From Alphaproteobacteria bacterium (GTDB taxonomy: Bacteria; Pseudomonadota; Alphaproteobacteria; UBA828): 64,000 nucleotides of DNA. Shown piece by piece: positions 1,232 to 40,766 of this stretch. A program made the translations under genes and the position numbers. Below the pieces are notes generated by a model. It did not search any database. It worked only from the letters and a program-made list of their open reading frames with translations, and was not told the DNA's origin. Position 1 is the first letter of the stretch; every line of letters begins with the position of its first letter. Location of the stretch: positions 2,720,001 to 2,784,000 of the forward strand of contig CBDCCI010000002.1 of assembly GCA_965214705.1 (NCBI GenBank). Reading direction: 5' to 3'.

Positions 1232-2264
1232 ATCAATGCACCTGGCTGGTCGCGAGCGGCCCCAGCCAGCTGGAGCTGGTCGTCATCGACTGGTTCAGGC
1301 GTTGGCTCGGCTATCCGGAGGGCGCGGGCGGGCTCTTCACCAGCGGCGGCTCGGCGGCGAGCGTCGACGCCTTCGTCGCGGCGCGCGAGGCGGCGGGCCA
1401 CCCCGAACGCGCCACTGTCTACATGAGCGACCAGAGCCACAGCGCGCTCTCCCGCGCGGCGATGATCGTGGGCGTCCGCCGCGAGCGCATTCGCATGATT
1501 CCGAGCGACGCGGACTTCCGCATGGACATGGATGCCCTCGCCAGCGCCGTGGCCGCAGACCGCGACGCCGGCCTTAGCCCCATCGCGGTCGCCGCCAACG
1601 CCGGCACGGCGGGCACGGGCGCCATCGACCCACTTGAGGAGATGGCCGACTTCTGCGCGGCGGAAGGCCTCTGGCTGCATGTCGACGCCGCCTACGGCGG
1701 CTTCGCGGTGGTGACCGAGCGCGGCAAGCGGCTTCTCCGCGGCATCGAACGCGCCGATTCGGTCGGGCTGGATGCGCACAAGTGGCTCTTCCAGCCCTAT
1801 GAAGCGGGCTGCCTGCTGGTTAAGGACGAGAATACGCTCACGAACGCCTTCGGGGTCCGGCCCGACATCCTTCAGGACACGGTATGGGGAGCAAACCATC
1901 CCAACTTCTCGAACCTCGGCCTGCAGCTGAGCCGCTCGGTTCGTGCGCTGAAGGTCTGGATGTCGGTCCAGACCTTCGGCATGGCGGCGTTCCGGCGCGC
2001 TGTCGAGACGGGGATGCAGCTGGCCGAGACGGCGGAAGAGTACATCCGTGAGAGTCCAGTCCTGGAAGCCACAAGTACGCCGACGCTGGGGATCGTGTGC
2101 TTCCGGGTCAATCCGTCTGACGATGAACTCGACGAGGCGGTACTGGACAAGGTCAACAGGACGGTCCTCGCCCGCATGTTCTGGGATAATCCTGCGTTCA
2201 TGTCGTCAATGCTGCTGCACGGGACGTTCACGCTCAGGATGTGCATCATCAACCACACCACGAC
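1232..2264 (+). pseudogene. PLP-dependent group II (aromatic-L-amino-acid-like) decarboxylase, copy 1, central fragment
   Basis: QCTWLVASGPSQLE..FTSGGS..LHVDAAYGG..DAHKWLF..LRMCIINHTT. The 5' part is cut off by the IS1380 and the 3' part is displaced to 40756. Confidence 0.9.
2254..2264 (+). repeat. Left 11-bp direct repeat (attL-like core or target duplication) CACACCACGAC
   Basis: Identical to 40756-40766; decarboxylase homology stops exactly after it. Confidence 0.9.
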
Positions 2265-2427
2265 GCGCACCTACGGTGCTAATCTACTGATAAAGCGTTG
2301 CTTTTTTCCTCCTGCTTTGGCCGATGGCCGCGGAATCGGTCCCCGATTTCGCCCCGGCTGCAACGCAGCGCAGGAGGAATATCAATGGCGACGCTTCGCC
2401 TCAACCAACGCCGCGTCGACGCGCTCA
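2265..2427 (+). repeat. 163-bp imperfect inverted repeat, copy A (element end, leader, RBS and first 14 integrase codons)
   Basis: Ungapped match to the reverse complement of 6911-7073, about 26 mismatches by manual count. Confidence 0.9.
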
Positions 2428-2753
2428 AGCCCCGCAAGTCCGCCTACGACGTGCGCGACCGCGATCTCAAGGGCTTCGGCGTAAGGGTCCTGCCCTCGGG
2501 CGCCAAGCGCTACTTCGTCCATACCCAGCACCAGGGCCGGCGGGTCTGGAAGATCGTCGGCCAGGCCGGGGCCATCGGCGCCGACGAGGCCCGCGACCGG
2601 GCCAGGACCCTGGTGGCCTCGCTCCGCAAGGGCGACGGCGGCGAAGCCGCGGCGGCGCCGGACATCCCGTTCGAGACGGTCGCCGATGAAGTCTTGCGCC
2701 GCTACGCCCGGAACTGGAAGCCGTCCACGCTCAAGGTCAACCGCTACTACTAC

Positions 2754-4956
2754 CAGGGCGAATTTGTCCAAGCCTGATTTTTGAGTTCTGCGCTACGAGT
2801 TGACCTTGGGTCTGGTCAGCGCGCGCCAACCCTGCTATGGATTGAGGCGACTGGATTCGCGGTGTTCTGCTGCGGATCGGCTTCGAGCAGGGGGACGGTT
2901 TCTACGGTGGATCTTTCCGAGGTCGATGTCGCTGCTGTCCGGCCGGAGGACGAGGCCCGGTTCCGCGCGCTGATGGAGGGGCATCACTACCTGGGTGCGT
3001 CTGCGAAGGTGGGGGCGACGGCGTGGTACGTCGCCCATCGGCGCGGCGAGTGGCTGGCGCTGGCCGTGTTTTCGGCTGCGGCGCGCAAGTGCCGGGCGCG
3101 GGACGAGTGGATCGGCTGGGACTTCCGCACGCAGCACGGGCGGCTGCATCTGATCGCGAACAACGCGCGCTTCCTGATCCTGCCGGGACGGGGTGTTCCG
3201 AACCTCGGCTCGCGGGTGCTGGGGCTTTGCGCGCGGCGCTTGGCGCGCGACTGGCCGGCCCGCTTCGGCCACCCCGTGCTGATGCTGGAAACATTCGTGG
3301 ACGCGGCGAGGTTCCGGGGCACGGTCTACCGGGCGGCTGGATGGCTGGCGGTCGGCCAGACCCGCGGCTTCCGGCGCCACCGCTCGGGCTATGTCGCCGG
3401 CTCGACGCCGAAGCTTGTGCTGCTGCGCCCCCTGGTTCCCGACGCCTGCCGCCGGCTGTCCGCTGCCGGGCTGGATCGGGAGTTGTGGAAGAAAGGAGTT
3501 CCGAGAACCATGATCAGCGCCGCTCAGCAAGAGTCGCTCTACGCCTACTTCAAGGACATCGACGACCCCCGCACGCGCAAGGGACGGCGGCATTCGCTGC
3601 CCAGCGTGCTCGCGCTTGCGAGTGGCGCGACGCTCTGCGGCATGCGAGGCTGGAAGGCCATCTCCGAGTGGGTCGACGATCTCGGCGAGAAGGCGCTGGC
3701 CCGCTTCGGCGTGCGGCTGCGCGACGGGGTGCGCCGGCCGCCTTCGATGTCGACCATCCGCAATGTGGTGATCCGGGTGGACCCGGACCAGTTGGACGAG
3801 GCGTTGCGCAAGTGGCAGGAGGCCCACGGCTCAGGCGACGCGGCGCTTGCCATCGACGGCAAGACCCTGAGGGGGGCCATCGACGAGGACGGGACCCAGG
3901 CTCATGTCATGAGCGCGGTCGGGCACGAGACCAAGGCCACGCTCGCCCAAAAAAACTTCTCCTGAAAGTCGGGGCCGACGAGGAGACAAAGCGCACCAAC
4001 GAGATCGGCACCGTGACGGCGCTGGTGGACCTGATCCCGAACATCGCGGGCAAGACGGTCACGACGGACGCGCTGCTAACCCAGCGCAAGTTCGCCCGCT
4101 ACCTGCTCGACCGGGGCGCGCACTTCATGTTCATCGTGAAAGGGAACCAGAAGACCATGCGGGACGATGTGACGCTGCTCTTCGAAGAGGCGCCGGAGCG
4201 TGAGCCCGACTTCGAGGAGGAGGCCGCGCTGTCGCACGGACGCATCGAGCAGCGGGCAATCTGGACGAGCACGGAGTTGAACGGCTTTCTCGACTTCCCG
4301 GGCGTCGGCCAGGTCTTCATGATCGAGCGCTCCCGCCAGGACAAGAAGACCGGCGAGACCGGCACCGAGACCGCCTACGGGATCTCCAGCCACACGCCCG
4401 GCACGGCCAACGCGCAGAGCCTGCTCGCCCTCAACCGCGGCCACTGGTGCATCGAGAACAGCTCGCACCACTGCCTCGACTGGACCTGGGACGAGGACCG
4501 CAGCCGCATACGCACAGGCTTCGGCCCCGAGAACATGACCCGCCTGCGGCGCTTCGCCATCGGCCTGATCAAGGGCCGGGGGCTCGAGGTCGCCTCGACC
4601 GTGCGCAGGCTCGCCCGCAACGTCCGCGCCGTCCTCGACTTCCTGAAAATGACCGGGAACACCCAGCCGAGGACCGCAAAGCGCGCCGCGCCGGCCTGAA
4701 CCCCGGCGCCCGGCAAGCCGGGCGCAAAGATCGTACCTGCCCTCGCTCCCGACCACGCCGGTGGCGCGATCCATCATGTCGGGGCACCGCCAAATCGCGA
4801 CGGCACCGCCCGCACCGCCCACACGGTAATGCCAGAACCCTCTGACCGAACCGGATGCTCGGCCAGACCCCGCCGCAAACCCCGCAACAAAGCCGATCCG
4901 CACAACCCGTGGCCAGAACTCAACTGCCTACCAGCCGCTTGGACAAATTTGCCCTG
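2754..4956 (+). mobile_element. ISAs1-family IS, 2203 bp
   Basis: Terminal IRs CAGGGCGAATTTGTCCAAGC / GCTTGGACAAATTTGCCCTG; 10-bp target duplication CTACTACTAC (2744-2753, 4957-4966). Confidence 0.92.
2907..4699 (+). CDS. DUF4338(DruA-like)-fused ISAs1 transposase with probable -1 frameshift at the A7 run 3949-3955
   Basis: ORF1 has HHYLG..RDEWIGW..NNARFLILP..ETFVD..GTVYRAAGW, then DDPRTRKGRRH..AIDGKTLRG. The -1 frame continues KRTNEIGT..TTDALLTQ..VKGNQ..HGRIE..RGHWCIEN. Start codon uncertain. Confidence 0.8.
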
Positions 4957-5725
4957 CTACTACTACCGGAACCAGATACTACCCTGGTTCAAAGGACGCT
5001 CCATCGCCGGCATCGCCGCAACCGACGTACAGTGCTGGTTTGCATCCCTTCACGAGACCCCCGTGTCGGCCGACCGCTCGGCCCCCGTGCTCTCGGTCAT
5101 CATGCGCCAGGCCGAAGTCTACGGCTACCGGCCGGAGGGGACCAATCCGTGCGCGGGCATCAAGCGCTATCGGCGCCAAGGGCGGGAGCGCTTCCTGTCC
5201 ACCGCCGAGATAGGCCGGCTGGGCGAGGTGCTGGCACGCCACGAGGCGGACCAGCCGCAGGCCGTGGCGATCGTACGGCTGCTCCTGCTCACCGGTTGCC
5301 GGGCAGGCGAGATCGTCTCCCTGAAATGGCGCGACTACCGCGAGGGCAAGCTGTTCCTGCGCGACTCCAAGTCCGGTCCGCGCACGGTCTGGCTCTCGTC
5401 TGCCGCGTGCGCGGTCCTCGACGGCCTTCCCCGCAAGGCAACCTGGATCTTCCCCTCGCCGCACAGGGACAGCTGTCTGTCCGGAGCGACGGTCACTCGT
5501 GTCTGGCATTCCGTGAGGGCGGAAGCGGACCTGCGCGACGTCCGCCTTCACGATTGCCGGCACTCGTACGCCAGCATGGCGCTCGCGCAAGGCGAGACGG
5601 TCCTGACCATCGGCCGGCTGCTCGGACACCGCGATCCGGCGACGACGCTGAAGTACATCCATCTGTCCGACACCATGGTGCGCGAGGCCGTCGACATGGT
5701 CGGCGCTGCCTTGGAGGGCTGACAC

Positions 5726-6913
5726 ATGGCCGCGAGGAGGCGGCGTCTGACCGACGCCAGCGTGGCCCGGCTGATGCCGGCGGCCCGGGAGTACACGGTC
5801 TGGGACACGCGGCAGGCGGGTCTCGGCGTGCGGGTCCGTCCGTCGGGGCACCGCAGCTTCGTGTATTGCCGGAAGGGCGACGGCGGCGCGCGCAGGATCA
5901 CGCTGGGACCTGCCGCGGTGACGGGCGTCGAGGAGGCGCGCGCGCGGTGCCTGGATATCGAGACCGGAGCGCGGTCCGGCGGGCCGGAACGCGGAGCGGT
6001 GCCGACGTTCGGCAAGTTCGCCGCGGGACCGGGCAAGGCGTGTTTCGAGCGGGGCAAGCCGTCCACGCGAGAGGCCCAGGCCAGGGTCGTCGCCGCGCGC
6101 CTGCTTCCGGCCTTCGGCTCCCTGCCGCTCGACCGGATCGACCGGGCCGGCGTGACCCGCTGGTTCGACGAATACAGCCGCACCGCGCCGGGCGGGGCCA
6201 ATGAGGCACTGGGTCTGCTCTGTCGAATCCTGAACCATGCGATCGTCTGCGGCCATCTCCGGTCGAACCCGGCCCGGGGCATCAAGCGGAACCCCAGGCC
6301 GAAGCTCACGCGCTTCCTGTCGCGCGGGGAGATCCGCCGCCTTCACCGCGAGCTGGATCGTTACGCCGGCGCGCGGCCGTCGCGCGCGCGGCAGGCGGAC
6401 ATCATCCGCCTGCTGCTGCTGACCGGCTGCCGCAAGAGCGAGATCCGGACCCTGCGCTGGCGGGACGTGGACGGGGACACGCTCAATCTGGCCGACGCCA
6501 AGACCGGCCCGAGACGGGTTTTCCTCAATGCGCCGGCCCGCGCCATCGTGGAACGGCAGCCGCGATCCGGGAGTGCCCTCGTCTTCCCCTCGCCGATCGA
6601 CCCGGGTAGGCCACTGTGCTCCGACTTGCCGCTCTGGTACTCGGTGCGCAGGGAGGTCGGGGTCGAGGACGTGCGAATTCATGACCTTCGGCATACGTTC
6701 GCCAGCCACGCCGTGCTGCAAGGCGTCCCACTACCCGTTGTCTCGCGCCTGCTCGGCCACAAGCACCCGAGCATGACGCTTCGCTACGCGCACGTCGGCG
6801 ACCGCGAGACCGAGGCGGCGGCGGAGCGCATCGGCGCGGCCATCGCGCAGGCGCTGGGACTGGGCACTCAACTGCACCCCTCGGATGCGTCGAGCGGCAG
6901 CTCGTCCGGGTGA
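5726..6913 (+). CDS. Tyrosine recombinase 2 with N-terminal arm-binding-type domain
   Basis: RLTDASV..VWD..GLGVRVRPSG; catalytic LTGCR, DAKTG, IHDLRH, LGH, RYAH. Starts 3 bp after the recombinase 1 stop. Confidence 0.93.
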   Translation: MAARRRRLTDASVARLMPAAREYTVWDTRQAGLGVRVRPSGHRSFVYCRKGDGGARRITLGPAAVTGVEEARARCLDIETGARSGGPERGAVPTFGKFAAGPGKACFERGKPSTREAQARVVAARLLPAFGSLPLDRIDRAGVTRWFDEYSRTAPGGANEALGLLCRILNHAIVCGHLRSNPARGIKRNPRPKLTRFLSRGEIRRLHRELDRYAGARPSRARQADIIRLLLLTGCRKSEIRTLRWRDVDGDTLNLADAKTGPRRVFLNAPARAIVERQPRSGSALVFPSPIDPGRPLCSDLPLWYSVRREVGVEDVRIHDLRHTFASHAVLQGVPLPVVSRLLGHKHPSMTLRYAHVGDRETEAAAERIGAAIAQALGLGTQLHPSDASSGSSSG

Positions 6914-7073
6914 GCGCATCGACCCGGCGCTCGGTGAGGCGAACCGTCGCCATTGACATTCCTCCTGCTTTCCGTTGCAGCCGGGGCGAATTCGTGGACC
7001 GATTCCGTGTGTTCCGGCCAAGTCAGGAGGAAAAAAGCAACGCTAAGTCAGTATATTAGAGCCGTAGGTGCGC
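6911..7073 (-). repeat. 163-bp imperfect inverted repeat, copy B (encodes only MATVRLTERRVDAL)
   Basis: Reverse complement of 2265-2427; overlaps the TGA of recombinase 2. Confidence 0.9.
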
Positions 7074-7107
7074 CGAACACACACGACAATACAGGCGATG
7101 TGTTCTT

Positions 7108-8538
7108 CTACATCGCCTCTAGCCCGAATCGCTCGACCGCTTCGAGCGTCTCACGAACGTCGTCCCACGATGTGGTGTGGTTGATGATGCACATCCTGAG
7201 CGCGAACGTTCCACGCAGCATCGTCGACGACATGAACGCCGGATCGTCCCAGAACATGCGGGCGAGCACGGTCCTGTTGACCTTTTCCAGCACTTCCTCG
7301 TCGAGGTCAGCGCCCGCCGGATTGACCCGGAAGCACACGATGCCCAGCGTCACCGTGTTCAGGGACTCCAGGACCGAACTCGCGCGGACGTACTCTTCAG
7401 CCTGGGTGGAAAGTTCCATCCCTCTGGCGACCGCACGCCGAAACGCCGCCATCCCGAAGGTCTGAACCGACATCCAGACCTTGAGGGCGCGAACCGAGCG
7501 GCTCAGCTGCAGGCCGAGATTGGAAAAATTGGGGTGGTTCGCCCCCCAGACCGTGTCCTGAAGAATATCGGGTCGGACCGCGAATGCATCCGCGAGCGTG
7601 CTCTCGTCCTTCACAAGCAGGCAGCCCGCCTCGTAGGGCTGGAAGAACCACTTGTGCGCATCCAGTCCGACCGAATCGGCGCGTTCGATTCCGCGGAGAA
7701 GCCGCTTGCCGCGCTCGGTCACCACGGCGAAGCCGCCGTAGGCGGCGTCGACATGCAGCCAGAGGCCTTCCGCCGCGCAGAAGTCTGCCATCTCCTCCAG
7801 CCTATCGATGGTCCCTGTGCCGGTCGTGCCGGCGTTGGCGGCGACCGCGATAGGGCTGAGGCCGGCGTCGCGGTCTGCGGCCACAGCGCGAGCGAGGGCA
7901 GCCATGTCCATGCGGAAGTCCGCGTCGCTCGGAATCATGCGGATGCAGTCGCGCCGAATGCCGACGATGAACGCTGCGCGGGAAAGGGCGCTGTGGCTCT
8001 GGTCGCTCATGTAGACAGTGGCGCGTTCGGGGTGGCCCGCCGCCTCGCGCGCCGCAACGAAGGCGTCGACGCTGGCAGCCGAGCCGCCGCTGGTGAAAAG
8101 GCCGCCCGCGCCCTCCGGGTAGCCAAGCCAACGCCTGAACCAGTCGATGACGACCAGTTCCAGCTGGCTAGGCCCGCTTGCAACCAGCCACGTACTTTGG
8201 TTGATGTGATAGCCGGCGGCCGCGAAGTCGGCCACCACGCCGGGCCAGGTGGGCGACGACGGGATGAAGCCGAAGCAGCGTGGATGATCAAGACGTGTGG
8301 CGTAGGGGAGAATGTCGCGCGCCGCCCGCTCGATCACCTCTTCTGCGGACCTCCCGTCCTCTGGCGGGTCCTCGAGCAGCTGGTCTTCGAGGACCTGCCG
8401 GAACTCACCCTCCCAGGCATTCTCTCCCGGCAGGCTCTCGATCCGCTCTACCACGAGCTCAAGCGCCTTTTGCCCGAGGTCGAGCATCTGCTCACGCGAC
8501 ATCTGGAGTTCGGCAGCCGCCTGCGCGTCAAGATCCAC
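7108..8538 (-). CDS. PLP-dependent group II (aromatic-L-amino-acid-like) decarboxylase, copy 2
   Basis: HPRCFGFIP, FTSGGS, HVDAAYGG, DAHKW (PLP lysine). Close paralog of copy 1. The native start may be TTG at 10662, separated by IS1634. Confidence 0.9.
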   Translation of the reverse strand: MDLDAQAAAELQMSREQMLDLGQKALELVVERIESLPGENAWEGEFRQVLEDQLLEDPPEDGRSAEEVIERAARDILPYATRLDHPRCFGFIPSSPTWPGVVADFAAAGYHINQSTWLVASGPSQLELVVIDWFRRWLGYPEGAGGLFTSGGSAASVDAFVAAREAAGHPERATVYMSDQSHSALSRAAFIVGIRRDCIRMIPSDADFRMDMAALARAVAADRDAGLSPIAVAANAGTTGTGTIDRLEEMADFCAAEGLWLHVDAAYGGFAVVTERGKRLLRGIERADSVGLDAHKWFFQPYEAGCLLVKDESTLADAFAVRPDILQDTVWGANHPNFSNLGLQLSRSVRALKVWMSVQTFGMAAFRRAVARGMELSTQAEEYVRASSVLESLNTVTLGIVCFRVNPAGADLDEEVLEKVNRTVLARMFWDDPAFMSSTMLRGTFALRMCIINHTTSWDDVRETLEAVERFGLEAM

Positions 8539-8549
8539 CTCGGACTTGA

Positions 8550-10645: not shown

Positions 10646-11073
10646 TTGAAATCGTCAGGCAAGGGGTCACCTGTCTTCCTTGTCACCGGTCGATCCGCCA
10701 TTTTCACTTCGTACTTTCATTCCCAGATCCCAACACGTGCGCCGCGGGAAGGAAACTCCGAGCAGCAAATGCGGCGCGCCGCTGTATGCGGCCAACAACG
10801 AAAACCCATCCCGGAAACGGCGGTCACACGGTAGTAGAGACGGCAACATGGAGCACTGCCCCGGACGGGACGCTGCGCTCTCCACGCCCAAAGCCCCAGC
10901 TTCGACGTCGCAGACCGGGTTCTCACCTTGTTTGGCGTGATCAGATAGTTCATTGGCGCGTTCGGGTGATGATCTGGCACGTCTTTGCCCCCACATTTCT
11001 GGCTACGACAACACTTGGCAACAACGCGGGCGATCTGGCCTGCAATCAAGACCCTATTGAAAGGAGACCCAAC

Positions 11074-12088
11074 GTGAGCCAAACAATATTCATTACCGGC
11101 GCTTCGAGCGGCATCGGCAGGGCGACGGCGATTTTCTTTCAGGAAAGGGGATGGAACGTCGTTGCGACGATGCGCCGTCCCGAAAACGAAAAGGAGCTGA
11201 CCCAACTCGACAACGTGTTCGTTACGGCACTCGATGTTCAGAACCCCGCTTCGATCGCCGATGCGGTGGAAGCAGGCATCGAGCGATTCGGCAAGATCGA
11301 AGTGCTGTTGAACAACGCGGGTTACGGATCCTACGGCGTGCTCGAAGCCACGCCGATGGAAAAGGTGCGGCGGCAGTTCGACGTCAACGTGATCGGCCTG
11401 CTGACCCAACTCGACAACGTGTTCGTTACGGCACTCGATGTTCAGAACCCCGCTTCGATCGCGATGCGGTGGAAGCAGGCATCGAGCGATTCGGCAAGAT
11501 CGAAGTGCTGTTGAACAACGCGGGTTACGGATCCTACGGCGTGCTCGAAGCCACGCCGATGGAAAAGGTGCGGCGGCAGTTCGACGTCAACGTGATCGGC
11601 CTGCTGGAAACCACCAAGACCGTGCTTCCCCATTTCCGAGCCAATGGGGGTGGCGCCATCATCAATGTTTCTTCGGCGGCAAGATGACCTTTCCGCTCGG
11701 CACCCTTTACCACGGCTCCAAGTTCGCAGTGGAGGAACTATCCGAGGCTTTGAGCTTCGAGATGGAAGCCATTGGGGTGAAGGTCAAGATCGTCGAGCCG
11801 GGCATAATCAACACCGACTTCAGCGGCCGCTCTCTCGACATCAATAACGATGAGAGCCTGACTGAATACCAGGAGTTCGTCGGCAAGATCTTCACTGCCT
11901 TTGGCTCGCGGACGGACCCCGGATCGGAGCCGGAGACGGTCGCCGAGGTGATCTACGACGCCGCAACCGACGGATCGAACCAGCTGCGCTACACCGCCGG
12001 GCCCGACGCCGTCGAGATCATCGCCAGCCGCAAGGCTGCTGACGACGCGACTTTCATCGGCGGCATCAAGGACCAATTCGGGCTTTGA
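11074..12088 (+). pseudogene. Short-chain dehydrogenase with ~204-bp internal tandem duplication and frameshifts
   Basis: ITGASSGIG, NNAG (twice), YHGSK. 11197-11400 is repeated at 11401-11603 with a 1-bp loss; second frameshift near 11675. Confidence 0.85.
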
Positions 12089-12108
12089 TTCGCCGGGGAG
12101 TGACAAGG

Positions 12109-13710: not shown

Positions 13711-13755
13711 GCGGTCGAACTGGCGAAGCTGAACCCGGCGCGGTAGGAAGAGAAG

Positions 13756-14751: not shown

Positions 14752-14769
14752 TACTCAATCTCAACGGGC

Positions 14770-26725: not shown

Positions 26726-26729
26726 TTCC

Positions 26730-27580: not shown

Positions 27581-27667
27581 CGCCAGGCTGTTGCGACTCA
27601 CCCCCATCGGTGCCGTCGATCGTCGAGGATCTCGTCCATCGTGCTTCGTTGGAAGAGCTGCCGAATT

Positions 27668-28192: not shown

Positions 28193-28470
28193 CGGCGCCT
28201 CACATGTGCTTGTCGAACCAGTTCACCGGGTCGCCGGGAACGCGGCCGATATAGTCATGGGCAGCTAACCAGCGACGCCCGCAAGACTCGGTCCGCCCGG
28301 GCTTCCCTCGGACGAATCGTGAAAATCCAAGGGCCAGGATTGCACCCTGAATCGCACCAAATGCTGCCGTCACGAGGGACGACTTTGGTGAGTTTCGGCG
28401 GCTACTCTCGCGAGTTTGCGCAAGTCGAGTTTGGTTCCGGGACACGAGAATCTTCCGACAGCTTCGTCCC

Positions 28471-30836: not shown

Positions 30837-30838
30837 CC

Positions 30839-31022
30839 TCAACACTCCCGGCTGCGGTGGCGTGGGAAGCATTGCTCGATGATCTCGCCGGCGACGATGT
30901 CCAGCGCCGCGAACAGCGTGGTGGTGCCACGGCGCAAATGGTCATGGGTACGCCGCTCGACCTGGCCGGGCCGCATGGGCAGCATCGGCTGGGAACGATC
31001 CAGCGCCTGGATCTGGCTCTGT
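30839..31022 (-). pseudogene. IS630-family transposase fragment
   Basis: [37 protein letters not shown]. Confidence 0.8.
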
Positions 31023-31107
31023 CGTTTCGACGATTCGGCGGCAGGGACGATACCACCAGGAAAGACAGCCATGCGGCTGCCGTTCCCTCAAGTACTGTGC
31101 CGGGGAG

Positions 31108-34100: not shown

Positions 34101-34536
34101 CGCCAAGAACGACCGACTGGCCTGCCGTGACTGTGACTGTGCCGGCCTGAGCCATGAAGCCGGACGTCACTCGGGCAAGGTCCACAGCCATGGGCGTAAT
34201 CCGCGCGGTGTAAGCATCGGAGTTCATCGCCGTCACGATCCCACCGGTCGATGTGGCGGTGATGGCGCCGTTCGCATCCACCTCCACCGTGACCGTGCAG
34301 TTGGAACCCCCGGCGGCGCAGCTGAAAGCGATATCGCCGTGATCATGCGACTCACCCGCAGCCACCTGGACAATGCCGGCCACGGCCACGAAGCCGGCCG
34401 TTGCATTAGAGAGGTCTACGTCCTCGGGCATCGCTTGGCCGTCGCCGGCCACAGGTCCGCCGCCTCCGCCGCATGCGGACATGGTCAGCGCCAGCGCAGC
34501 GATCGTTGCGGTCAGCGCATACTTCTTGCCGATCAT
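31108..34536 (-). CDS. Large surface lipoprotein (1142 aa) with three 78-aa repeats and two TbpB-like modules
   Basis: MIGKK..LTMSAC lipobox followed by GGGGG. GTATYxGDAxGxY occurs twice; C-terminal GYWSGMFFG..SIGGAF..LAGSFG barrel signature. Confidence 0.8.
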   Translation of the reverse strand: MIGKKYALTATIAALALTMSACGGGGGPVAGDGQAMPEDVDLSNATAGFVAVAGIVQVAAGESHDHGDIAFSCAAGGSNCTVTVEVDANGAITATSTGGIVTAMNSDAYTARITPMAVDLARVTSGFMAQAGTVTVTAGQSVVLGDIEFSCAAGGNDCSVVVEVDTDGSVTAMSTGGMVTAMNSDAYTARITPMAVDLAPVTAGFMAGAGTVQVPAGQSVDHGDIAFSCAAGGADCEVIVAVGTDGTVSATSTGGMVTAMNSDAYTDRKATAHPVVGKWAGDWPGGARTVLAITSVSSDGQVTGTYRHQERGGQPFVLEISPDGPVTASIQNGVLSFSFGQSTFEFTESTEDTLSFTFQFSPDVQMVSVDVDRQDADGMMPSDVPSPDALANVIDLVANDSRQDLFGNYVGGHWWRSHDIGAQQAVVTGTYRGGQFVNAIVSHDESGQLQHNVAVFQINPLQQADPWSRAGRYINTYETPEQLEGVTNSTRSISDHGLGSKWQVTELTADYDTGGTLTIYVATDVQPSDGSVDPFETAAEVDHNIELSGAPALPADQDFLVAWIPNGDSIEGSLDGVAGTFSCANPDGCAFVDDHTPGGYYASDTGLTFTPDVGTAQPVLARSIGIVTSADYLALGHWLYVPEDVTDSVNYEFGVYASGGDPFEISHLAPLAGTATYVGDAVGKYYVDGLSDNPTVGSFTADATLTADFGDGIETGFISGEVNSFEFEDDVASSMPASVTLASRNGQLQFNVSIPGDNPLQQAGPWVRDGRYINTYQNNADLEGVTWFRRPVFDPELAGWRVEKLTNIYENASTLDIYVATDAQASDGSVDPFSGELYPDYNIHLSGAPTLEIDKDFMVAWIGDGETTEGSLSGVTGTFSCANEDGCVFIDNRYRGSYYAADPGVTFTPDGGTPQPVIPTELLSATPADYLAFGRWLYVSEDETDADAYDFGVFASGGDAFQVNNIVALTGTATYSGDAAGVYYANGLSSSPDIGTFTADVDLMADFKSSSEYGVVSGAVSNFVFDGDASSSVSSLYPTALSLTANAFDGYGVEQGSQNIFDRSWPTVSAPSRGGWISGQIEGGSADDGSYMSGYWSGMFFGNGAAPTDLPTSIGGAFSAYVWDDNQQSERGLAGSFGVHRQ
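33735..34425 (-). repeat. Three 234-bp intragenic repeats
   Basis: GGAGTTCATCGC recurs at 33751, 33985 and 34219. Confidence 0.9.
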
Positions 34537-34567
34537 GGGAACAGGGCCTCCCTCCCGAACGCGCTTC

Positions 34568-34606
34568 AAAGAGGCCCCGTAAAGAGGCCCCGTAAAGAGG
34601 CCCCGT
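34568..34606. repeat. Tandem 13-mer AAAGAGGCCCCGT x3
   Basis: Three perfect copies about 30 bp upstream of the lipoprotein start. Confidence 0.9.
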
Positions 34607-34961
34607 GAAGAGAACGAGGTCAGGTTAGCACATCTGGCTAATGCCGTCAGCAATCGTGTTCGCACAATCGCGTTCGCGAGGCATGTGCGCGTTCTCCGGT
34701 GCGAGGCGGCTGGCTTGTAGGGGTCGGATGTCGTCTGCCGGGATCGCTCGGGCGCGGCGCCACAACTCTGGTCGAATCCGCCGAGGGCGCAGAGTTTTCG
34801 CAAGAATTTTGGTCTGATCCGCTCGCTGGGGCGATGTTTGGAGATGGTCAGCATCTGGGCTGTCTGGCCGGCATCACGGCCATCCCTTGCCAATCAGCCT
34901 GCCGGCTCCGATATCCCTTACTGCACTGTCATCAACGTCCGGTGCTTACGGGGAGGAGAGC

Positions 34962-35856
34962 ATGGCGCCCGACGACGAGACGCGCCGCAGTTCCAATTCC
35001 GGGGAGGACGCGTTCGACGGCCGCGACCTCCTGGTCGGCCGGCCGGAAGAGGCAGTGGAGGGCAGGTCGGCTGCCGAGGCGGCAGATGTGCCGCCTGCGA
35101 CGCCAATCCCGCAGCCCGCAGAGCCATCCCCGCAGCCTGCTGCGCACGACGACGCCATCGCGGAGATCCTCGCGACGGTGCGGGCCACCGCCGCACGCTT
35201 CGACGCGCTCCAGGACGAGTCAGGACCGGGCCACGAGACCGCCGAGACGCTTCCGCGAGACGGCGGCGCTGGCTCAGGCGGTCGCAGACGCGCGTGGCGC
35301 GCTCGCGAAGGCGGCAGAATTAGCCTCGCGCCGGGACGGGGCGGCGGAGACAGCGCGCACGCTGGCCGGGGCCGCCGCCGCGCTGAAGACGCAGGGCGAG
35401 GCCCTCGACCAGCGTATCCACGCCACGGAACGGCAGTCGGCTGTGGCCGCCCACAGCATGGAGGACATGAACCAGTCGGCGACGGCGCTCGGCGACCAGC
35501 TGCGCTCCCTCCGCAACGACTTGTCCCGCATCGCCGAGAGACTGCGGTGGCGGCACTGGCGCTTCGACCTCGCCGTGGCGGGCGCGGCGTTCGTCTTCTT
35601 TGTACTGGGCACATTGCTGCAGCGGGAGTCCGATGTCGTGTCCTTCGGTGACCCCCGCCACGCTTGGAACGATTTCGTCGCCGAGCACTACGCGCCGTCG
35701 CTCGCAATCTGCGCGTCGAAGGCCCGTCTCGACGAGAGAACCATTCGGTGCGGGCTGGATATCGACCCCTCGCTGGTTGTGACGGTCCCCTTCTATCCGG
35801 GAACTCTGACCAAAGTGCCGCCCGAAGAGGAATTCGACGGCACGACGGACCGGTAG
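34962..35856 (+). pseudogene. Frameshifted coiled-coil plus single-TM hypothetical protein upstream of the relaxase
   Basis: GGAGGAG RBS, MAPDDETRR..; frame changes near 35250 into ETAALAQAVADA..LAVAGAAFVFFVLGTLL..; ends 6 bp before the relaxase. Confidence 0.55.
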
Positions 35857-35862: not shown

Positions 35863-38800
35863 ATGGTCGCGACTGTCACGCGCCTGAAGGCCGCCGCCAC
35901 GACGGTGCACTACTTCGAGGCCGACGGGTATTACGCGAAGGGAGACCCCGAGCACCGGAAGGCCAGCGGCTGGTACGGCGAGGCGGCGACGTTGATGGGC
36001 CTGCATGGGCCGGTCAAGCCGAAGCGCTTCGAGGCCCTGCTTGCGGGCTACGTGCCCGGCACCGACATTCGCCTCGGCCGCCTGCGCGACGGCGAGCACC
36101 AGCACCGGCCCGGCGTGGACGTGACCTTCTCCGCTCCGAAGTCCGTATCCCTGGAGGCGCTGGTCTACGCGGCGCCGAAGACGGGGGCACGGGTGGTGAG
36201 GGCGCACAACGAGGCGGTGCGCGCCACGCTGGGCTTCATCGAGAACGAGCTGTTGCAGACACGGAGCTACGATCCGGCGACCGGCCGCAGGCCCAGGGTG
36301 GAGGCGGACGGCATGGCGGCGGCGACCTTCCGGCACCTGGCGAGCCGCAACCTCGATCCACAGCTGCATACGCACGCCGTGGTCGCCAACATGACCCGCG
36401 GCCGGAACGGGGAGTGGCGGAGCGCCGAGTTTACCGCCGTCGAGCGGTCGAAGCTGCTGATCGGCGCCTACTACCGCAACGAGCTGCGCACGGGGCTCGA
36501 AAAAATCGGCTACGCCACGGTGCCGACGCTTGTGGGCCGGATGCCGGGGTTCGAGATCGCGGGCTACGGCAAGCCGATGCTGGACGCCTTCTCGACCCGC
36601 CGCCGCGAGTTGCTGGACTACATGCAGGAGCGTGGCTGGGAGAACACGCCGGCGAGAGCACAGCAGGCAGCGCTCTACACACGGCAGCGCAAGGCGGAGC
36701 CAGATCGGCAGGTCCTGCACCGGACATGGAAGGAACGGGCCCAGGAACTCGGCCCTGCGCGCGACCGGGACATCGCAAGGGGCCGCGACGGGATCGGCGC
36801 ATCGGCAACCCCCGTGCCCGAGCCGCGGGCGCAGCCGTCCGCGCTTGCGGTGGTGCGGCAGGCCGTGGAGCACCTGGAGGAACGGCGCACGGTGTTCTCC
36901 GCCAACGACCTGCGCGCCTGGGCGCTGGCCCACGGGGGCGGCCGGCACTCGCTCGAAGCGCTGGACGTCGAGATCGCCCGGCTCCGGCGCGACGGGCACC
37001 TGATCGAAGCGGCAGCGCGAAGGGCGGACCTGGCCTTCGTCACCGACCGGGCGCGCAACGCCGAGCGCGACATTATCGCCGGGATGCGCGCGGGCCTGGA
37101 TGCCGGGCGGAGCCTGGCGCCGGCAGAGGCGGTCGAGGCTGAGCTCGACGCGGCCGGCCTGAACCCCGGCCAGCGCGACGCGGTGCGCGGAATCCTGCTC
37201 TCGCCTCATGTCACGGTAGGGGTGCAGGGCCACGCGGGCTCCGGCAAGACCACCATGCTGCGCACGGTGGCGGCGCTGACGGGCGAGCGTCAGATCATCG
37301 GCCTGGCCCCTTCGGCAAGCGCCGCGCGCGTGCTCGAAGGCGAGGCCGACATCCCGGCCCGCACGCTGCAATGGTTCCTCACGCGCTACCGCGACGTGGG
37401 CGACGGCATCGCCTCGCCCGAGAGGACGGAGGAAGCGCGCAAGGCCCTGGGCGGTTCGGTGCTGATCCTCGACGAAGCATCGATGGTCGGCACGACCCAG
37501 ATGCGGGCGTTGACGCGGATTGCTGCCGAGACCGGCGTCGAGCGCCTCGCGCTGATCGGCGACAGGAGGCAGCTGCGCGCGGTCGAGGCGGGCCAGCCCT
37601 TCGCCCTGCTGCAGGACGCAGGGATGCCCACCGCCAGGATGGACGAGGTGGTGCGCCAGCGCGACGCGGACCTGCGCCAAGCCGTGCTGCACATGGTGGC
37701 GGACGAGCCGCGCCTGGCGGTCGAGGAACTCGGCAACGGCGTCCTGGAGACGGCGGGTGACGAGCTCGGCAGGAAGGCGGCGCAACTCTGGCTCGACCTC
37801 GACCCGGACCAGCGGCTCGGAACGGCGATTCTGGCGCCCACGCACGAGCTCAGGGCCGAGATCAACGCAGCCGTCCGCCACGGCCTGGAGGACGAAGGGG
37901 TGCTGCACGGCCCCGAGCTGGAGATCGAGCGCTACGTCAACCTCCACCTGACCCGCTCCCAGAAGGGCGACATCGCCAACTACAGGGAAGGCGATGTCGC
38001 CGTCTTTCACCATGACGTCTACGGCGTCCGCGCGAAGGCCGGCGACGCCTGCTGCGTGACCGAAGTCGGAGACGAGCGCGTCGTGCTCACCATGCCCGGC
38101 GGCAAGGAGCGCGCCATCGATCCCTCCGGCTATATCCGCTACCGCCTCGACCTCTTCGAGACCCGGCCGATGGTGCTCAAGGCCGGAGACCGGGTGCGCT
38201 GGACCCGCAACGATTCCACGCGCGGCCTGATCAACGGTGAGAATGCCGAAGTGCTGTCCATCCGCCGGGTGAACGTCACGATACGCACAGTGGACGGCCG
38301 CGAGATCGTCATGGCCCGCGACGATCCTCAGCTTCACCACCTGGACCACGCCTACTCGTCCACCGTGCACGCCGCCCAGGGCATCACATGCGACCGGGCC
38401 ATCGCCGTCCTGGATACCGAGCGCGGGGGAGTGGCCGACCAGGCGACCTTCTACGTGGAGCTCACCCGCGCCCGCGACAACGTGGTGCTGCTGACCGACG
38501 ACCGGGAGGCGCTGATCGAAGCCCTGGAGACTTCGCCTGCAGAGCAGATGTCGGCGCTCAGGGCCATCGGCGAGCAGTTCGAGACCTCGGTCTCGGTCTC
38601 GACCTCGCCGGAGAATGTTCCCCGGCACCCGCCTCCAGAGAGGGAAGCGGTCCTGGACGACGCGGAAAGGGAGAACCGCAAGGCTGCGGAACGCTTCCTG
38701 GACGGGGCTCTGTCAGCGGCCGCCTCCTTGATCCGGCAGCGCGAAGAGCACGCGACGATTGCTGCCAGTAACCGCGCCCATGTCACCGAGGATCCCGGCT

Positions 38801-39042
38801 ACGGCGAATGGCGCGACGATGCGCGGCGCGCCCTCGACGGCTGCCGCCGTATCCTCGACGACCCCGAGACCTACGGCAGGCATTTTTCGCGCCGTCCGGG
38901 CGCGGAGGACGAGATCAGACGCCTTTCGGCGAAGATCGAAACCACCCTGGCATCGGACAAGGCCGAGATCGAACGTCGTCAGCAGGAGCTCGAAGCCAGT
39001 AAGGCGAAGGAGCGCGACATCGACATGGGCCTCGAGCTGTGA
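35863..39042 (+). CDS. MOBF (TrwC/TraI-like) relaxase-helicase
   Basis: YFEADGYY, DVTFSAPKSVS, RNLDPQLHTHAVVAN (HUH), FSTRR, GHAGSGKT, LDEASM, GDRRQL, HAYSSTVHAAQG; ends ERDIDMGLEL. Confidence 0.95.
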   Translation: MVATVTRLKAAATTVHYFEADGYYAKGDPEHRKASGWYGEAATLMGLHGPVKPKRFEALLAGYVPGTDIRLGRLRDGEHQHRPGVDVTFSAPKSVSLEALVYAAPKTGARVVRAHNEAVRATLGFIENELLQTRSYDPATGRRPRVEADGMAAATFRHLASRNLDPQLHTHAVVANMTRGRNGEWRSAEFTAVERSKLLIGAYYRNELRTGLEKIGYATVPTLVGRMPGFEIAGYGKPMLDAFSTRRRELLDYMQERGWENTPARAQQAALYTRQRKAEPDRQVLHRTWKERAQELGPARDRDIARGRDGIGASATPVPEPRAQPSALAVVRQAVEHLEERRTVFSANDLRAWALAHGGGRHSLEALDVEIARLRRDGHLIEAAARRADLAFVTDRARNAERDIIAGMRAGLDAGRSLAPAEAVEAELDAAGLNPGQRDAVRGILLSPHVTVGVQGHAGSGKTTMLRTVAALTGERQIIGLAPSASAARVLEGEADIPARTLQWFLTRYRDVGDGIASPERTEEARKALGGSVLILDEASMVGTTQMRALTRIAAETGVERLALIGDRRQLRAVEAGQPFALLQDAGMPTARMDEVVRQRDADLRQAVLHMVADEPRLAVEELGNGVLETAGDELGRKAAQLWLDLDPDQRLGTAILAPTHELRAEINAAVRHGLEDEGVLHGPELEIERYVNLHLTRSQKGDIANYREGDVAVFHHDVYGVRAKAGDACCVTEVGDERVVLTMPGGKERAIDPSGYIRYRLDLFETRPMVLKAGDRVRWTRNDSTRGLINGENAEVLSIRRVNVTIRTVDGREIVMARDDPQLHHLDHAYSSTVHAAQGITCDRAIAVLDTERGGVADQATFYVELTRARDNVVLLTDDREALIEALETSPAEQMSALRAIGEQFETSVSVSTSPENVPRHPPPEREAVLDDAERENRKAAERFLDGALSAAASLIRQREEHATIAASNRAHVTEDPGYGEWRDDARRALDGCRRILDDPETYGRHFSRRPGAEDEIRRLSAKIETTLASDKAEIERRQQELEASKAKERDIDMGLEL

Positions 39043-39133: not shown

Positions 39134-39580
39134 TCATGGCGGGTCGGAACTCCCGGCGCTCGTTCGCGCGCGGAACCGGTCGACGGTGGCCGCCGCAACC
39201 TGCTCGCCAAAGAGGTCCCTCAGCATCGCCCGCAGCTCCTCCTCGCGGCCCTCGCGCATCATCCTTCGCATCGTTTCGTCGACCAGGAAGGCGAGAGAGT
39301 TGCGAACCCTCGTCATCACCGCCTCGTCCGTCTCTGCCTCCACCGTGCGCTCGGCAATGGCGGCCACACGGTCCAGAAGGGTGCGCTGCTCCGCCTCGTC
39401 CAGCACGAGGCGGGGCGGCGATTCAGGCTCGGTCTCGGGGTCCACGGTGAGCCCGCGCTCGACCATGTAGCGCGAGATGGACAAGCCCTTCCGCTCGGCC
39501 AGCACCCGCACGCGTCCCCAGTCGGAGTCGGTGCATGACAGCGAATACGCCTTCGGCCGGGTCCGGTCACGCCTCCTCAT
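39134..39580 (-). CDS. Small RHH/MobC-like protein 3
   Basis: AYSLSCTDSDWGRVRVLAERKGLSISRYMVE strand-helix-helix pattern. Confidence 0.7.
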   Translation of the reverse strand: MRRRDRTRPKAYSLSCTDSDWGRVRVLAERKGLSISRYMVERGLTVDPETEPESPPRLVLDEAEQRTLLDRVAAIAERTVEAETDEAVMTRVRNSLAFLVDETMRRMMREGREEELRAMLRDLFGEQVAAATVDRFRARTSAGSSDPP

Positions 39581-39939
39581 GAACCGTCTCCGCCGTCATC
39601 GCCGGACCTGGCGCGCGCCTCCCGGGCCAGGAAGGCGAGTGCGCCGAGCGCCGATATCTCCGTCCCCGGCAGACGAGAAAGCAGCGCCTCGTTGCACCGA
39701 TCAAGAAGCGCCACGCGCTCGTACAGAACCCTCTGCTCATCCTCGGACAGAACTAGGCGAGGACCTTCCTCGTCGTCATCGGCGTCCGCCCCATGAAGCG
39801 CGCATAAGACCATGAAGCGCGAGAAGCTCATCCCCGCCTCCTTGGCCCGCCGTCCGATCAGAGCGCGGTTCTCCGGCGAGCAGTAGACGCTGCGAATGCG
39901 CGCAATCTCCCGCTTCCCGCCACCCTTGATGGCCGTCAT
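39577..39939 (-). CDS. Small RHH/MobC-like protein 2
   Basis: RSVYCSPENRALIGRRAKEAGMSFSRFMV; shares PRLVL.E.EQR.L..RVA with protein 3; 4-bp overlaps with both neighbours. Confidence 0.7.
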   Translation of the reverse strand: MTAIKGGGKREIARIRSVYCSPENRALIGRRAKEAGMSFSRFMVLCALHGADADDDEEGPRLVLSEDEQRVLYERVALLDRCNEALLSRLPGTEISALGALAFLAREARARSGDDGGDGS

Positions 39940-40262
39940 CCTAGCGCCTCCTCGGCATCGCTCCGTGCACCGGCCCGACGCACCAGAGCCTGCCAGGTCT
40001 CCGCCCCTGCGGAACCCTCGACGCGCTCTTTCTCGACCTCGTAGAGCACCCTGACCATGCGCTCGATGCGCGCCACCGCGCCCGCGAGATCGCGCCTCAA
40101 GTTCACGTCATCCGGCACCGCAACAGGCGCCGTCAGCCGCTCCATGATGAAGCGCGACACGTCCATTCCCACAGCGTCCGCGTGCTCCTTGAGCGCCTGC
40201 CAGTCGCTGTCCGTGGCCATCACTGCGCGCTGCCGTTTGCGCCCCTGCGCTGCCTCGTTCAT
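39936..40262 (-). CDS. Small RHH/MobC-like protein 1
   Basis: RAVMATDSDWQALKEHADAVGMDVSRFIME; GGAGG RBS. Confidence 0.7.
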   Translation of the reverse strand: MNEAAQGRKRQRAVMATDSDWQALKEHADAVGMDVSRFIMERLTAPVAVPDDVNLRRDLAGAVARIERMVRVLYEVEKERVEGSAGAETWQALVRRAGARSDAEEALG

Positions 40263-40299
40263 GCCGTCCGCCTCCTCCGGTATAACCGCTCCGCCCGCG

Positions 40300-40500
40300 T
40301 CCTGTGTCTCTCCTGTGTTGCTATAAGATGAGCGAATGTCGCGCGAAATACGCTACGACATTCGCGCGACATCCGCCAACGACTCGCCTACAGGCACCAT
40401 AGCTGCCATAGACACTATAAAACATATGTTATGTCTTCTACAGTCAAGCTCACCAGCGGCTTCCGCCAGAGAGCCACCAAACTGCACCCGCGACATTCGA
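40300..40500. promoter_or_regulatory. Candidate oriT / RHH operator region
   Basis: 12-bp IR ATGTCGCGCGAA/TTCGCGCGACAT (40336-40372); three CGACATTCG motifs; minus-strand TAGTGTCT^ATGG resembling the R388 nic site. Confidence 0.45.
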
Positions 40501-40671
40501 ATGAAATACGTTAAGTCCCTGAATACAACTATCGAGCTATCGAGAACTCTGCCTTATGGACCCCGCCTCTCCGCCAAAAGCCCGTTGACGACGCCCCCAA
40601 GGCACTGTACTATAACCATTATCAGGAGGAGATTGCAACGCTGTACAGAACCACAAAATTGCTTGATCTCG

Positions 40672-40755
40672 CTCATGTTTTGTCTCATGTTTTGTCTCAT
40701 GTTTTGTCTCATGTTTTGTCTCATGTTTTGTCTCATGTTTTGTCTCATGTTTTGT
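40672..40755. repeat. Tandem 12-mer CTCATGTTTTGT x7
   Basis: Seven perfect copies ending at the base before the right direct repeat. Confidence 0.95.
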
Positions 40756-40766
40756 CACACCACGAC
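40756..40766 (+). repeat. Right 11-bp direct repeat (attR-like) CACACCACGAC
   Basis: Identical to 2254-2264. Confidence 0.9.

Follow-up and report, generated by a model that had tools for sequence, protein, structure and literature searches.

Integrative elements with one integrase aimed at one gene are textbook knowledge. To our knowledge, elements that rely on several recombinases (Tn554, SEs, GInts, and RITs) are few, and their mechanisms have not been settled. Here we describe an insertion of 38,502 bp at positions 2265-40766 of a 64-kb stretch from an alphaproteobacterial genome (GenBank assembly GCA_965214705.1, contig CBDCCI010000002.1, positions 2,720,001 to 2,784,000), the whole of which is called the window below. 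The insertion interrupts decA, a gene for a pyridoxal-phosphate (PLP)-dependent decarboxylase, and carries two tandem tyrosine recombinase genes, int1 and int2, at its left end and a MOBF relaxase gene at its right end. We consider it likely that 2265-40766 is a decayed copy of a family of integrative mobilizable elements (IMEs) that behave as low-specificity transposons.

Among the described systems, the GInts, genomic islands of Pseudomonas and other bacteria, resemble this family in layout. As described in PMC5385486, they have a conserved multi-recombinase operon at the 5' end, variable cargo directly from the stop codon of this operon onward, and a 3' end that is short and little conserved, together with imperfect direct repeats of 10-11 nt, att variants that steer later targeting, and an outward promoter. 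However, the GInt operon ginABCD consists of three recombinase-like genes and ginD, and the same source describes GInts as non-mobilizable, whereas the window family has two arm-domain integrases of the P4/SXT type, an optional DUF5372 gene, and often a MOBF relaxase (this comparison is by description only). The tripartite layout with 10-11-nt repeats is thus found in the window family, but with two recombinase genes in 28 of 28 pairs instead of the GInt operon.

Tn554 and the SEs (strand-biased circularizing integrative elements), according to the account in PMC10214605, also have two catalytic tyrosine recombinases and a small protein (TnpC or Srap) encoded in one operon at the element end, and are transposon-like with few sites. 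In that account they leave a 6-bp footprint derived from the left flank of the donor, have no direct repeat, and encode no relaxase; the SEs moreover have tfp between intA and intB and are given only for Gammaproteobacteria. Tn554 is defined by tnpA, tnpB, and tnpC without a duplication or repeat, whereas the window family has 10-11-bp repeats and the window copy has no third gene. The SE order intA-tfp-intB with srap was not found either, the gap between int1 and int2 being 7-22 nt without a gene in between, and the NCBIfam GmtZ score being 15 bits against a cut-off of 600. RIT (recombinase in trio) elements, which PMC10214605 reports as abundant in Alphaproteobacteria, resemble the family in that tandem tyrosine recombinases form the whole mobility module. 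However, they are defined by three tandem recombinase genes, and the window family has two per unit, with sub-terminal repeats of 8 + 8 bp.

The mobilizable transposons NBU1, Tn4555, and MTnPi1-3 and the element CTnDOT share low target specificity and several copies per genome with the window family. MTnPi1-3 are stated to encode a 'duo of tyrosine integrases' (PMC5704250), and CTnDOT recombines at a short conserved motif with a variable overlap (PMC2817482). These Bacteroidota elements differ in their integrase families, relaxases (MobP, Q, V, or C), and hosts, the MTnPi elements being set apart by description. According to a 2017 review, MOBF relaxases were unknown in canonical IMEs and no canonical IME had been described in Proteobacteria (PMC5704250). 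The pair XerC/XerD offers an analogy, with two catalytic, co-evolving paralogs, each of which would serve one half of an asymmetric site. Int1 and Int2 are not members of these families, since their NCBIfam XerC and XerD scores were 46-61 bits, against cut-offs of 330-335; they are also element-borne and have P4-type arms.

The window family is therefore closest to the GInts in layout and repeats, to Tn554 and the SEs in its two recombinases and optional small protein, and to MTnPi-like transposons in life style, and it lacks a defining feature of each. An earlier note on this DNA, made from the sequence alone, had concluded that the element matches no nameable family and may be an undescribed class. 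No named multi-recombinase family fits it, but the claim of a class was too strong: the element lies within the known IMEs and multi-recombinase elements, and it shows the canonical features of the former, namely recombinase genes at one end, its own relaxase without pore or coupling genes, and direct repeats with an empty site. A search of the full-text literature, with subscription journals and supplements outside it, found no published description of tandem P4-type integrase elements or of DUF5372, and the integrase-pair element family is apparently undescribed. The window copy is a degraded example whose interest comes from the family behind it. This family supplies dozens of natural insertions for which both ends, empty sites, and repeat mismatches of differing degree are available, and from which the crossover region, the rule of targeting, and the requirement for two active recombinases can be read.

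The insertion in decA and its two recombinase genes

The 11-mer CACACCACGAC, which consists of an ACACC motif and the variable pentamer ACGAC, is found as a direct repeat at 2254-2264 (attL, + strand) and 40756-40766 (attR, + strand), with no other site on either strand of the 64-kb window at up to one mismatch. Deletion of 2265-40766 opens a decarboxylase frame that joins residues ~113-457 of decA (1232-2264, + strand) to its 3' end (40767-40866, + strand) and terminates in ...CIINHTTTWDDVRETLEAVERF...*. The restored protein is 88% identical over 364 residues to that of an intact paralog, decB, and the BLASTP alignment runs through the junction. In three loci of relatives (L021, L024, and L020), decA is uninterrupted, and the two flanks adjoin without a gap, the 11-mer being present once. 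Identity to window positions 1232-2264 is 98.9% in L021, 96.6% in L024, and 89.9% in L020, where the right flank is also colinear for 1,534 bp. The C-terminus of the restored decA is native, as observed with two controls, the decB alignment and the uninterrupted relatives. Because decA is unbroken and has the 11-mer once in three relatives, the 38,502 bp represent an insertion; the 98.9% identity of the empty allele in L021 makes this a recent event on the genus scale. The exact ends, the 11-bp repeat, and the restoration of the decarboxylase end by excision, all put forward in the earlier note, are confirmed by these comparisons, and the contiguous decarboxylase on which its reading depended is present in L020, L021, and L024.

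Open reading frames (ORFs) were called by third-position GC, and 30 ORFs of the insert were scanned against Pfam. The element begins with a conserved non-coding left end (2265-2384, + strand), which starts with GCGCACCT.CGGTGCTAA and holds one arm of a sub-terminal inverted repeat at 2294-2314. The 5' part of int1 follows (2385-2753, + strand) and encodes an Arm-DNA-bind_3 domain (PF13356, 38 bits, cut-off 27). It is separated by an insertion sequence (IS) of 2,203 bp (2754-4956, + strand) from the 3' part of int1 (4957-5722, + strand), which encodes the catalytic domain (Pfam Phage_integrase) and is 83% identical to Int1 of a second copy of the element (copy 2, see below). Near-identical copies of this IS occur more than 25 times in the genome; the one in int1 is flanked by a 10-bp target duplication, CTACTACTAC, and contains an ORF with DruA-like and DDE_Tnp_1_assoc domains. 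The second gene, int2 (5726-6913, + strand), is intact and encodes a tyrosine recombinase with arm, central, and catalytic domains in Pfam (PF13356, 28.6 bits, cut-off 27; PF00589 was found in both Int1 and Int2). Both proteins thus combine Arm-DNA-bind_3 with a catalytic domain, as in the IntSXT/P4 subgroup of integrases with DUF4102 arms described in PMC8138268. A PDB sequence search with Int2 returned generic integrase catalytic domains only. Two arm-domain tyrosine recombinases had been predicted at the left end, and the pair is indeed present, but its first member is split by the IS, and the ORF at 2781-3965 is IS-borne and not a recombinase. Because int1 is broken, the window copy is probably not autonomous.

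The genome (G000; 7.9 Mb in 3 contigs, C1 to C3) holds two further copies with the same two ends. Copy 2 (C1:1337680-1355106, 17.4 kb) has both integrase genes intact. Copy 3 extends from its right end at C1:597586 to its left end at C1:655650, has the perfect repeat CACACCGACAA, and carries another family member nested in int1. Copy 2, copy 3, and the window copy have only a left segment of ~2.4 kb and a right segment of ~5.9 kb in common, and their middle parts are entirely different. The view of the 38.5 kb as a unit, taken in the earlier note, was accordingly given up: the shared backbone is ~8 kb (2.4 kb left and 5.9 kb right), and the remainder is cargo, five ISs, and a rearranged interior with an inverted stump of another element.

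Beyond these copies, 35 Int2-type genes were counted in the genome by tblastn (at least 50% identity, with at least half covered), and 28 of them had a same-strand Int1-type gene 7-22 nt upstream. The other seven were truncated, or separated from Int1 by an IS or a nested element. Fourteen Int2 genes (68-100% identical to the window Int2) form clade A and 21 (55-60%) form clade B. A further 17 tandem integrase pairs in the genome are only ~38% identical. This second kind of tandem pair (L090-L111 and the ~17 pairs in G000, ~38% identical to Int1) has a spacing of ~100-160 bp and forms an independent duplication in the quick tree described below. Besides the 35 Int2-type genes, the 7.9-Mb genome contains 31 TrwC-type matches, an illustration of the extent to which a genome can be permeated by such elements and by IS expansions.

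The pair is widespread in the genus. Matches to Int2 at E <= 1e-40 were found in all 20 of the sampled genus genomes, with up to 46 scored per genome. Among 80 loci of relatives, almost every Int2 had an Int1 just upstream unless the contig ended there; these loci are mostly from metagenome-assembled genomes of Alphaproteobacteria, Rhodospirillales, and Defluviicoccus, with a few from Paracoccaceae, Thalassobaculaceae, and Gammaproteobacteria. Tandem pairs with a 4-bp overlap and 37-43% identity were found on 37 plasmids, among them the Shewanella oneidensis MR-1 megaplasmid (L119) and Paracoccus versutus pTAV1 (L120); their annotation there goes no further than 'site-specific integrase'. In these two plasmids, CACACC occurs ~165-170 bp upstream of the first integrase gene and may mark a left boundary, or the 6-mer may be there by chance. 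Many Int2 matches at 57-63% identity (in G000, G004, G017, and others) show exactly one in-frame TAG, which may come from alignment past the stop codon.

Sixteen Int1 and 16 Int2 sequences were aligned (58-94% identity to the first row; lowest 61% for Int1 and 58% for Int2), and the catalytic residues R, K, H, R, H, and Y were invariant in 16 of 16 sequences of each. In a quick maximum-likelihood tree of 47 sequences, one group (support 98) contained the second gene of every pair from clades A and B and of the two plasmid pairs (Shewanella and Paracoccus), another contained the first genes, and the branching of the two was mirrored. The label of first or second gene required 2 changes on the tree, a value that none of 500 shuffles reached, the mean after shuffling being ~16. 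The distant clade C pairs appeared as a separate duplication in the same quick tree. The old duplication, fixed order, tight spacing, and intact active sites argue for joint action of Int1 and Int2, and we put the chance that they act together as a two-subunit recombinase at about even. A prediction of the Int1 + Int2 complex, with a 16-row alignment for each protein, scored 0.29 against a mark of 0.32 and speaks neither for nor against binding.

The right module and its recurrence

The conserved right module starts at 34886-35856 (+ strand), a segment that includes the 3' part of a 385-aa ORF; this ORF matches no Pfam family and ends 7 bp before the relaxase gene. Homology in the right module begins at 35342 for copy 2 and at 34886 for copy 3. 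The relaxase gene (35863-39042, + strand) is intact and encodes a MOBF relaxase-helicase of 1,059 aa with a TrwC domain (PF08751, 254.7 bits, cut-off 25), with matches to NCBIfam MobF (NF041492, 247.1 bits, cut-off 100) and TIGR02686 (221.5 bits, cut-off 145.5). Its C-terminal part matches AAA_30 (160.7 bits) and partially RecD2 and RecD, as in an SF1B helicase. The relaxases at C1:1339314 and C1:599217 are 95% and 94% identical to it, respectively.

Three genes for NikA/MobA-like ribbon-helix-helix (RHH) proteins of 148, 120, and 108 aa (39134-40262, - strand) follow and are conserved in copies 2 and 3. They are presumed to encode relaxosome accessory proteins. The earlier note had placed a relaxase, three RHH-like genes, and a repeat array at the right end, and all of these were located, but of the RHH ORFs only the middle one scores above the Pfam cut-off (30.2 vs 27). 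The first is a paralog of the middle one (35% identity, E 1e-10), and the third is weakly similar (E 0.006). A PDB sequence search with the middle RHH protein gave no match.

The module closes with a conserved non-coding right end (40263-40755, + strand). It contains a 16-bp inverted repeat at 40332-40376, a candidate oriT (origin of transfer) or operator, and a predicted outward sigma-70-like promoter (TTGACG-17-TACTAT, 40585-40613), which is conserved in copies 2 and 3; three promoter-like sites were found in the right-end region, against 0.4 expected. The 8-bp blocks CAGGAGGA and GCAACGCT occur in inverted orientation at 2294-2314 and 40623-40642 and form the sub-terminal repeats. A repeat array of the 12-bp unit CTCATGTTTTGT (x7.1) occupies 40672-40756. 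This unit, which lies beside the attR core, is present 7.1 times in the window copy and once in each of copies 2 and 3.

No VirB4, VirD4, Rep, coupling-protein, or pore family was matched among the 30 scanned ORFs of the insert, in keeping with the earlier note, which had seen no VirB4, VirD4, or Rep.

The relaxase module is found together with the integrase pair in copies 2 and 3 and beyond this genome. Six relaxase loci with at least 79% identity were found in five other genomes, and four of them have a family int2 on the same strand (64-81% identical) 9-24 kb upstream. These four (two in G017 and one each in G005 and G008) come from three other species; of the remaining two, one is on a short contig and one has no partner listed. 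The co-occurrence of the integrase pair and the relaxase module, which the earlier note had proposed to look for, thus recurs twice more in the genome and at 4 of 6 close relaxase loci of other species. Clade B pairs in the right orientation lie 20-45 kb from genes of a second TrwC clade (~1,800-aa frames, 51-55% identity) accompanied by RHH genes, for example at C3:480173-509265 and C1:614735-654614. The family is an example of a MOBF relaxase joined to an integration module that is almost free of site restriction.

Genes that might supply the missing transfer functions are present elsewhere in the genome, which encodes seven TrwB-type and four VirD4/TraG-type coupling proteins. Four clusters combine TrbI, a 945-aa VirB4-like AAA_10 ATPase, a TrwB-type coupling protein, and a MOBF relaxase of a third clade (42-45% identical to that of the window). 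These type IV secretion clusters (C3:240-260 kb, C1:1840-1888 kb, C1:1953-1974 kb, and C1:3027-3049 kb) are plausible helper elements.

Target motif, proposed mechanism, and alternatives

Every clade A and clade B copy starts with [G/A]CGCACCT.CGGT.CTAA ~120 bp before int1. A search with the left-end pattern found 38 ends genome-wide, with ACACC at positions -10 to -6 in 35, ACACG in two, and another sequence in one. Among the relatives, ACACC lies 5 or 6 bases from the left end in 20 of 23 cases. The five bases between ACACC and the left end vary, and the flanks are mutually unrelated apart from a few repeated targets. The decA target contains CAC-ACC-ACG-AC. Because 35 of 38 left ends follow ACACC and five variable bases, the repeat is a short target or crossover motif that is not specific to the decarboxylase. 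The element behaves as a low-specificity mobilizable transposon and not as a gene-specific island.

The right ends fall into about four sequence types, each of which ends just before ACAC(C/A/G) and a pentamer. The window copy and copy 3 have perfect 11-bp repeats, and eleven further members, 13.9-88 kb in size, have perfect 10-bp repeats; the latter were found by a search for pentamer identity, which is biased to perfect repeats and is expected to give ~1.3 chance matches per element. A search by right-end homology alone gave 10 new right ends. Four of them match the nearest left end at four of the five variable bases, and the mismatch is always at the first or second base (TTCAG/ATCAG in copy 2, TGACG/GGACG, AGCGT/ATCGT, and TTAAC/TCAAC). 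Three others match at 3/5 and one at 2/5, with uncertain pairing, and two are without a partner. A one-motif search for right ends near every RHH-C homolog recovered only the three clade-A copies. Seven clade-B copies that are 96-98% identical have the pentamers AGACG, GTGCG, GCGCG, TGACG, GGACG, ATGCG, and GCTCG, all of which end in CG and differ only at positions 1-3, in small steps. Conservative recombination, in which attP is ACACC with the pentamer of the last site and mismatched events change the pentamer, fits the data on the ends.

Two further target regions were noted. Near the right end at C1:360465 (left end at C1:382340), the core and pentamer are repeated in tandem ~6 times with a 12-bp period, and the target may be a repetitive gene. 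The member at C3:1721120-1741985 has a second, uninterrupted version of its target in the region of C3:1718363, 2.7 kb beyond its right end; this duplicate has one copy of ACACCACCCT.

We propose the following mechanism. The core of the family is the 2.4-kb left module, with a conserved end followed by the translationally coupled int1 and int2, whose products may share the work much as XerC and XerD do at dif. Acting together on an excised circle, these proteins would recombine its joined ends with a chromosomal site of ACACC and about five bases that match, or nearly match, those of the previous site. Such an event would leave a direct repeat of 10-11 bp, and the preferred target would drift from jump to jump. 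The outward promoter of the right end is predicted to read across the circle junction into int1-int2. Through the right module (the MOBF relaxase, the three RHH genes, and a 0.5-kb end that probably holds oriT), the circle could be nicked and then transferred through the mating apparatus that a helper provides. The window copy would now be mobile only with Int1 from a sister copy.

Three other explanations were weighed. The repeat could be a true target-site duplication, produced by staggered cuts and repair and not by identity shared between attP and attB. The pentamer varies between copies and yet is the same at both ends in the window copy, copy 3, and the eleven further members, as a duplication would give, but the perfect-repeat set was selected for identity. 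The imperfect repeats point the other way: all four clear cases have the mismatch in the one or two bases proximal to ACACC, which is where arm-derived bases, as opposed to overlap bases, would be expected, and close copies have pentamers that can be ordered by single-base steps. Furthermore, the only conserved enzymes are tyrosine recombinases, which rejoin DNA without synthesis. We regard a duplication as unlikely.

It is slightly less probable still that the mobile unit is the 2.4-kb module only (left end, int1, int2, and sometimes the DUF5372 gene), with the relaxase/RHH block and everything else being passengers or neighbouring DNA in front of an unrelated ACACC site. Such a unit would account for the seven clade-B copies, which at 96-98% identity have nothing in common past the end of int2, and for cargo that is wholly different between the window copy, copy 2, and copy 3. 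However, the empty site places all 38.5 kb between the two repeat copies, and the clade-B copies have no repeat of ACACC and the pentamer just after int2. In addition, the right ends are of a few conserved types, which abut ACACC and a pentamer identical or nearly identical to that of the paired left end, and one integrase clade is followed by one and the same right module in three copies of the present genome as well as in G017, G005, and G008.

Finally, it is improbable that only one of Int1 and Int2 is a recombinase and the other a relaxase related to tyrosine recombinases (the MOB_M kind) or a factor for a different role such as directionality or targeting, because the six catalytic residues and the arm domain are kept in both paralogs (16 of 16 each) and the window element already encodes a complete MOBF relaxase, even though tyrosine-recombinase-related relaxases are reported to exist, often annotated as integrases (bioRxiv 10.64898/2026.01.13.699239), and many integrase pairs in the genome have no TrwC gene nearby.

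Evidence for activity was sought in sequencing runs. Eight runs contained part of copy 2, and the contigs of four (X4-X7), all from one study that may be the source of the assembly, were aligned to the copy 2 locus (L116). In three of these four, a joint leaves out 17,437 bp (from 876 to 18314, exactly copy 2, with 4 ambiguous bases). Its depth was 3.8, 22, and 14.3, compared with ~7-10, 45, and 60-87 inside copy 2, and its shorter side, at 19-21 nt, is unreliable. An uninterrupted paralogous site at C1:1526348-1526461 is 92% identical and differs by 3 bases within 12 nt of the joint. The joint was therefore rejected as proof of excision, as its short side is weak and the paralogous site could be its source.

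Several observations weigh against the reading of the insertion as a decayed copy of a low-specificity mobilizable family. The search for a circle junction in reads, which the earlier note had suggested, gave no circle joint in the contigs of the four runs on copy 2. In the window copy itself, int1 is IS-split, which leaves it without a complete recombinase pair of its own, and the interior is chimeric, an inverted stump of another element adjoining decB, so that the 38.5 kb need not have arrived in their present form. Neither a nick site nor an excisionase was identified, and oriT was not located. Clade-B copies of 96-98% identity share only the 2.4-kb integrase module, and for many clade-B copies no right end was found, so that not every member need be relaxase-bearing. 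The first catalogue of perfect repeats required identical pentamers and is hence biased, and right and left ends were paired by nearest neighbour, which is uncertain for 4 of the 8 paired ends. PF03135 (VirB4) had no match in the genome, the pore ATPase of the candidate helpers being recognized only by AAA_10 matches.

A wider claim, to which we lend somewhat less than even credence, is that the Int1-Int2 elements form an undescribed superfamily of transposon-like integrative elements. It would be built on an obligate heteromeric pair of P4-type integrases that requires no more than a 5-bp ACACC half-site and near-identity to an inherited pentamer, so that specificity drifts. The module, whose two paralog lineages occur also on the Shewanella and Paracoccus plasmids, would be old, would have reached dozens of copies in one alphaproteobacterial genus, and would recruit MOBF modules to ride resident conjugative elements.

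Rearranged interior, cargo, and neighbouring sequences

Directly behind int2, the window copy departs from other family members. An inverted stump of a second member (6914-7074, - strand), recognized by alignment and junction comparison, comprises a left end and ~15 first codons of int1. Read in reverse, it shows 87% identity to the copy 2 left end, and it directly abuts the stop codon of int2; comparison with four other loci places the joint at a microhomology of 7-8 bp. At these four loci, the same int2 tail is followed by a gene for a 101-aa DUF5372 protein, whose GTG start overlaps the TGA of int2 (L117:5918-6223, - strand; L118:6404-6709, - strand; and C1:2598706 and C1:4142132 in G000). 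This third gene was found after int2 at these four loci only and is missing from the window copy. Four further DUF5372 genes occur elsewhere in the genome. We had considered the Int2 tail (…GLGTQLHPSDASSGSSSG) as a product of the rearrangement and rejected this, as the identical tail precedes the DUF5372 gene at the four other loci; a small convergent ORF after int2 was likewise discarded, the DUF5372 gene on the same strand as int2 being preferred. Another solo left end, at C1:514292-514454 in G000, is cut at the same int1 codon (~15) as the window stump and is joined to different DNA.

The intact decB (7108-8538, - strand) encodes a 476-aa PLP decarboxylase (Pfam Pyridoxal_deC, 222.7 bits), and its stop lies 35 bp from the stump. 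Its closest relatives in 40 sampled genomes are only 89% identical. On the simplest reading, a second family member inserted beside decB inside the element, and most of it was then removed by deletion. decB may be cargo or captured flanking DNA.

Outside the element, decA has been split near residue 113 by the end of an IS1380-like insertion sequence (1-1231, - strand). This sequence has at least 6 near-identical copies in the genome, and its NCBIfam IS1380 match is below the cut-off. Just outside the window, on its upstream side, is the N-terminal piece of decA (C3:2719225-2719560).

Five internal IS copies, including that in int1, account for 10,575 bp of the insert. The second, of ~2.1 kb (8549-10646, - strand), has more than 20 copies and a weak DDE_Tnp_1 match; the third, of 2.1 kb (15088-17190, + strand), has ~15 copies; and the fourth, of 1.5 kb (19940-21442, - strand), has ~25 copies and DUF772 and DDE_Tnp_1 domains. 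The last is an IS91-family unit (22631-25298, - strand) with a Y2 transposase and a Xer-like tyrosine recombinase, and ~100 near-identical full or partial copies of it are spread over the three contigs. This Xer-like recombinase is IS-borne and is not an element integrase.

The cargo between the ISs is miscellaneous and partly made up of fragments, among them half a phosphoenolpyruvate mutase. The segment at 10786-14751 (+ strand) holds short-chain dehydrogenase fragments, an aldehyde-dehydrogenase-like ORF, and an AraC-type regulator, and 17422-19811 holds an NnrU-like protein, a beta-propeller protein, and a cupin. The segment at 25300-34893 encodes a glyoxalase-like protein, an SRPBCC protein, a TAT-signal alpha/beta hydrolase, a TetR regulator, and a 1,261-aa repeat protein of no assigned family. 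Within the short-chain dehydrogenase fragments, 11196-11606 is a 203-bp tandem duplication (99% identical). The ORF of the 1,261-aa protein (31108-34893, - strand) lies in a lower-GC stretch, contains a 234-bp x2.8 tandem repeat, and has a sub-threshold match to Slam-dependent surface lipoproteins.

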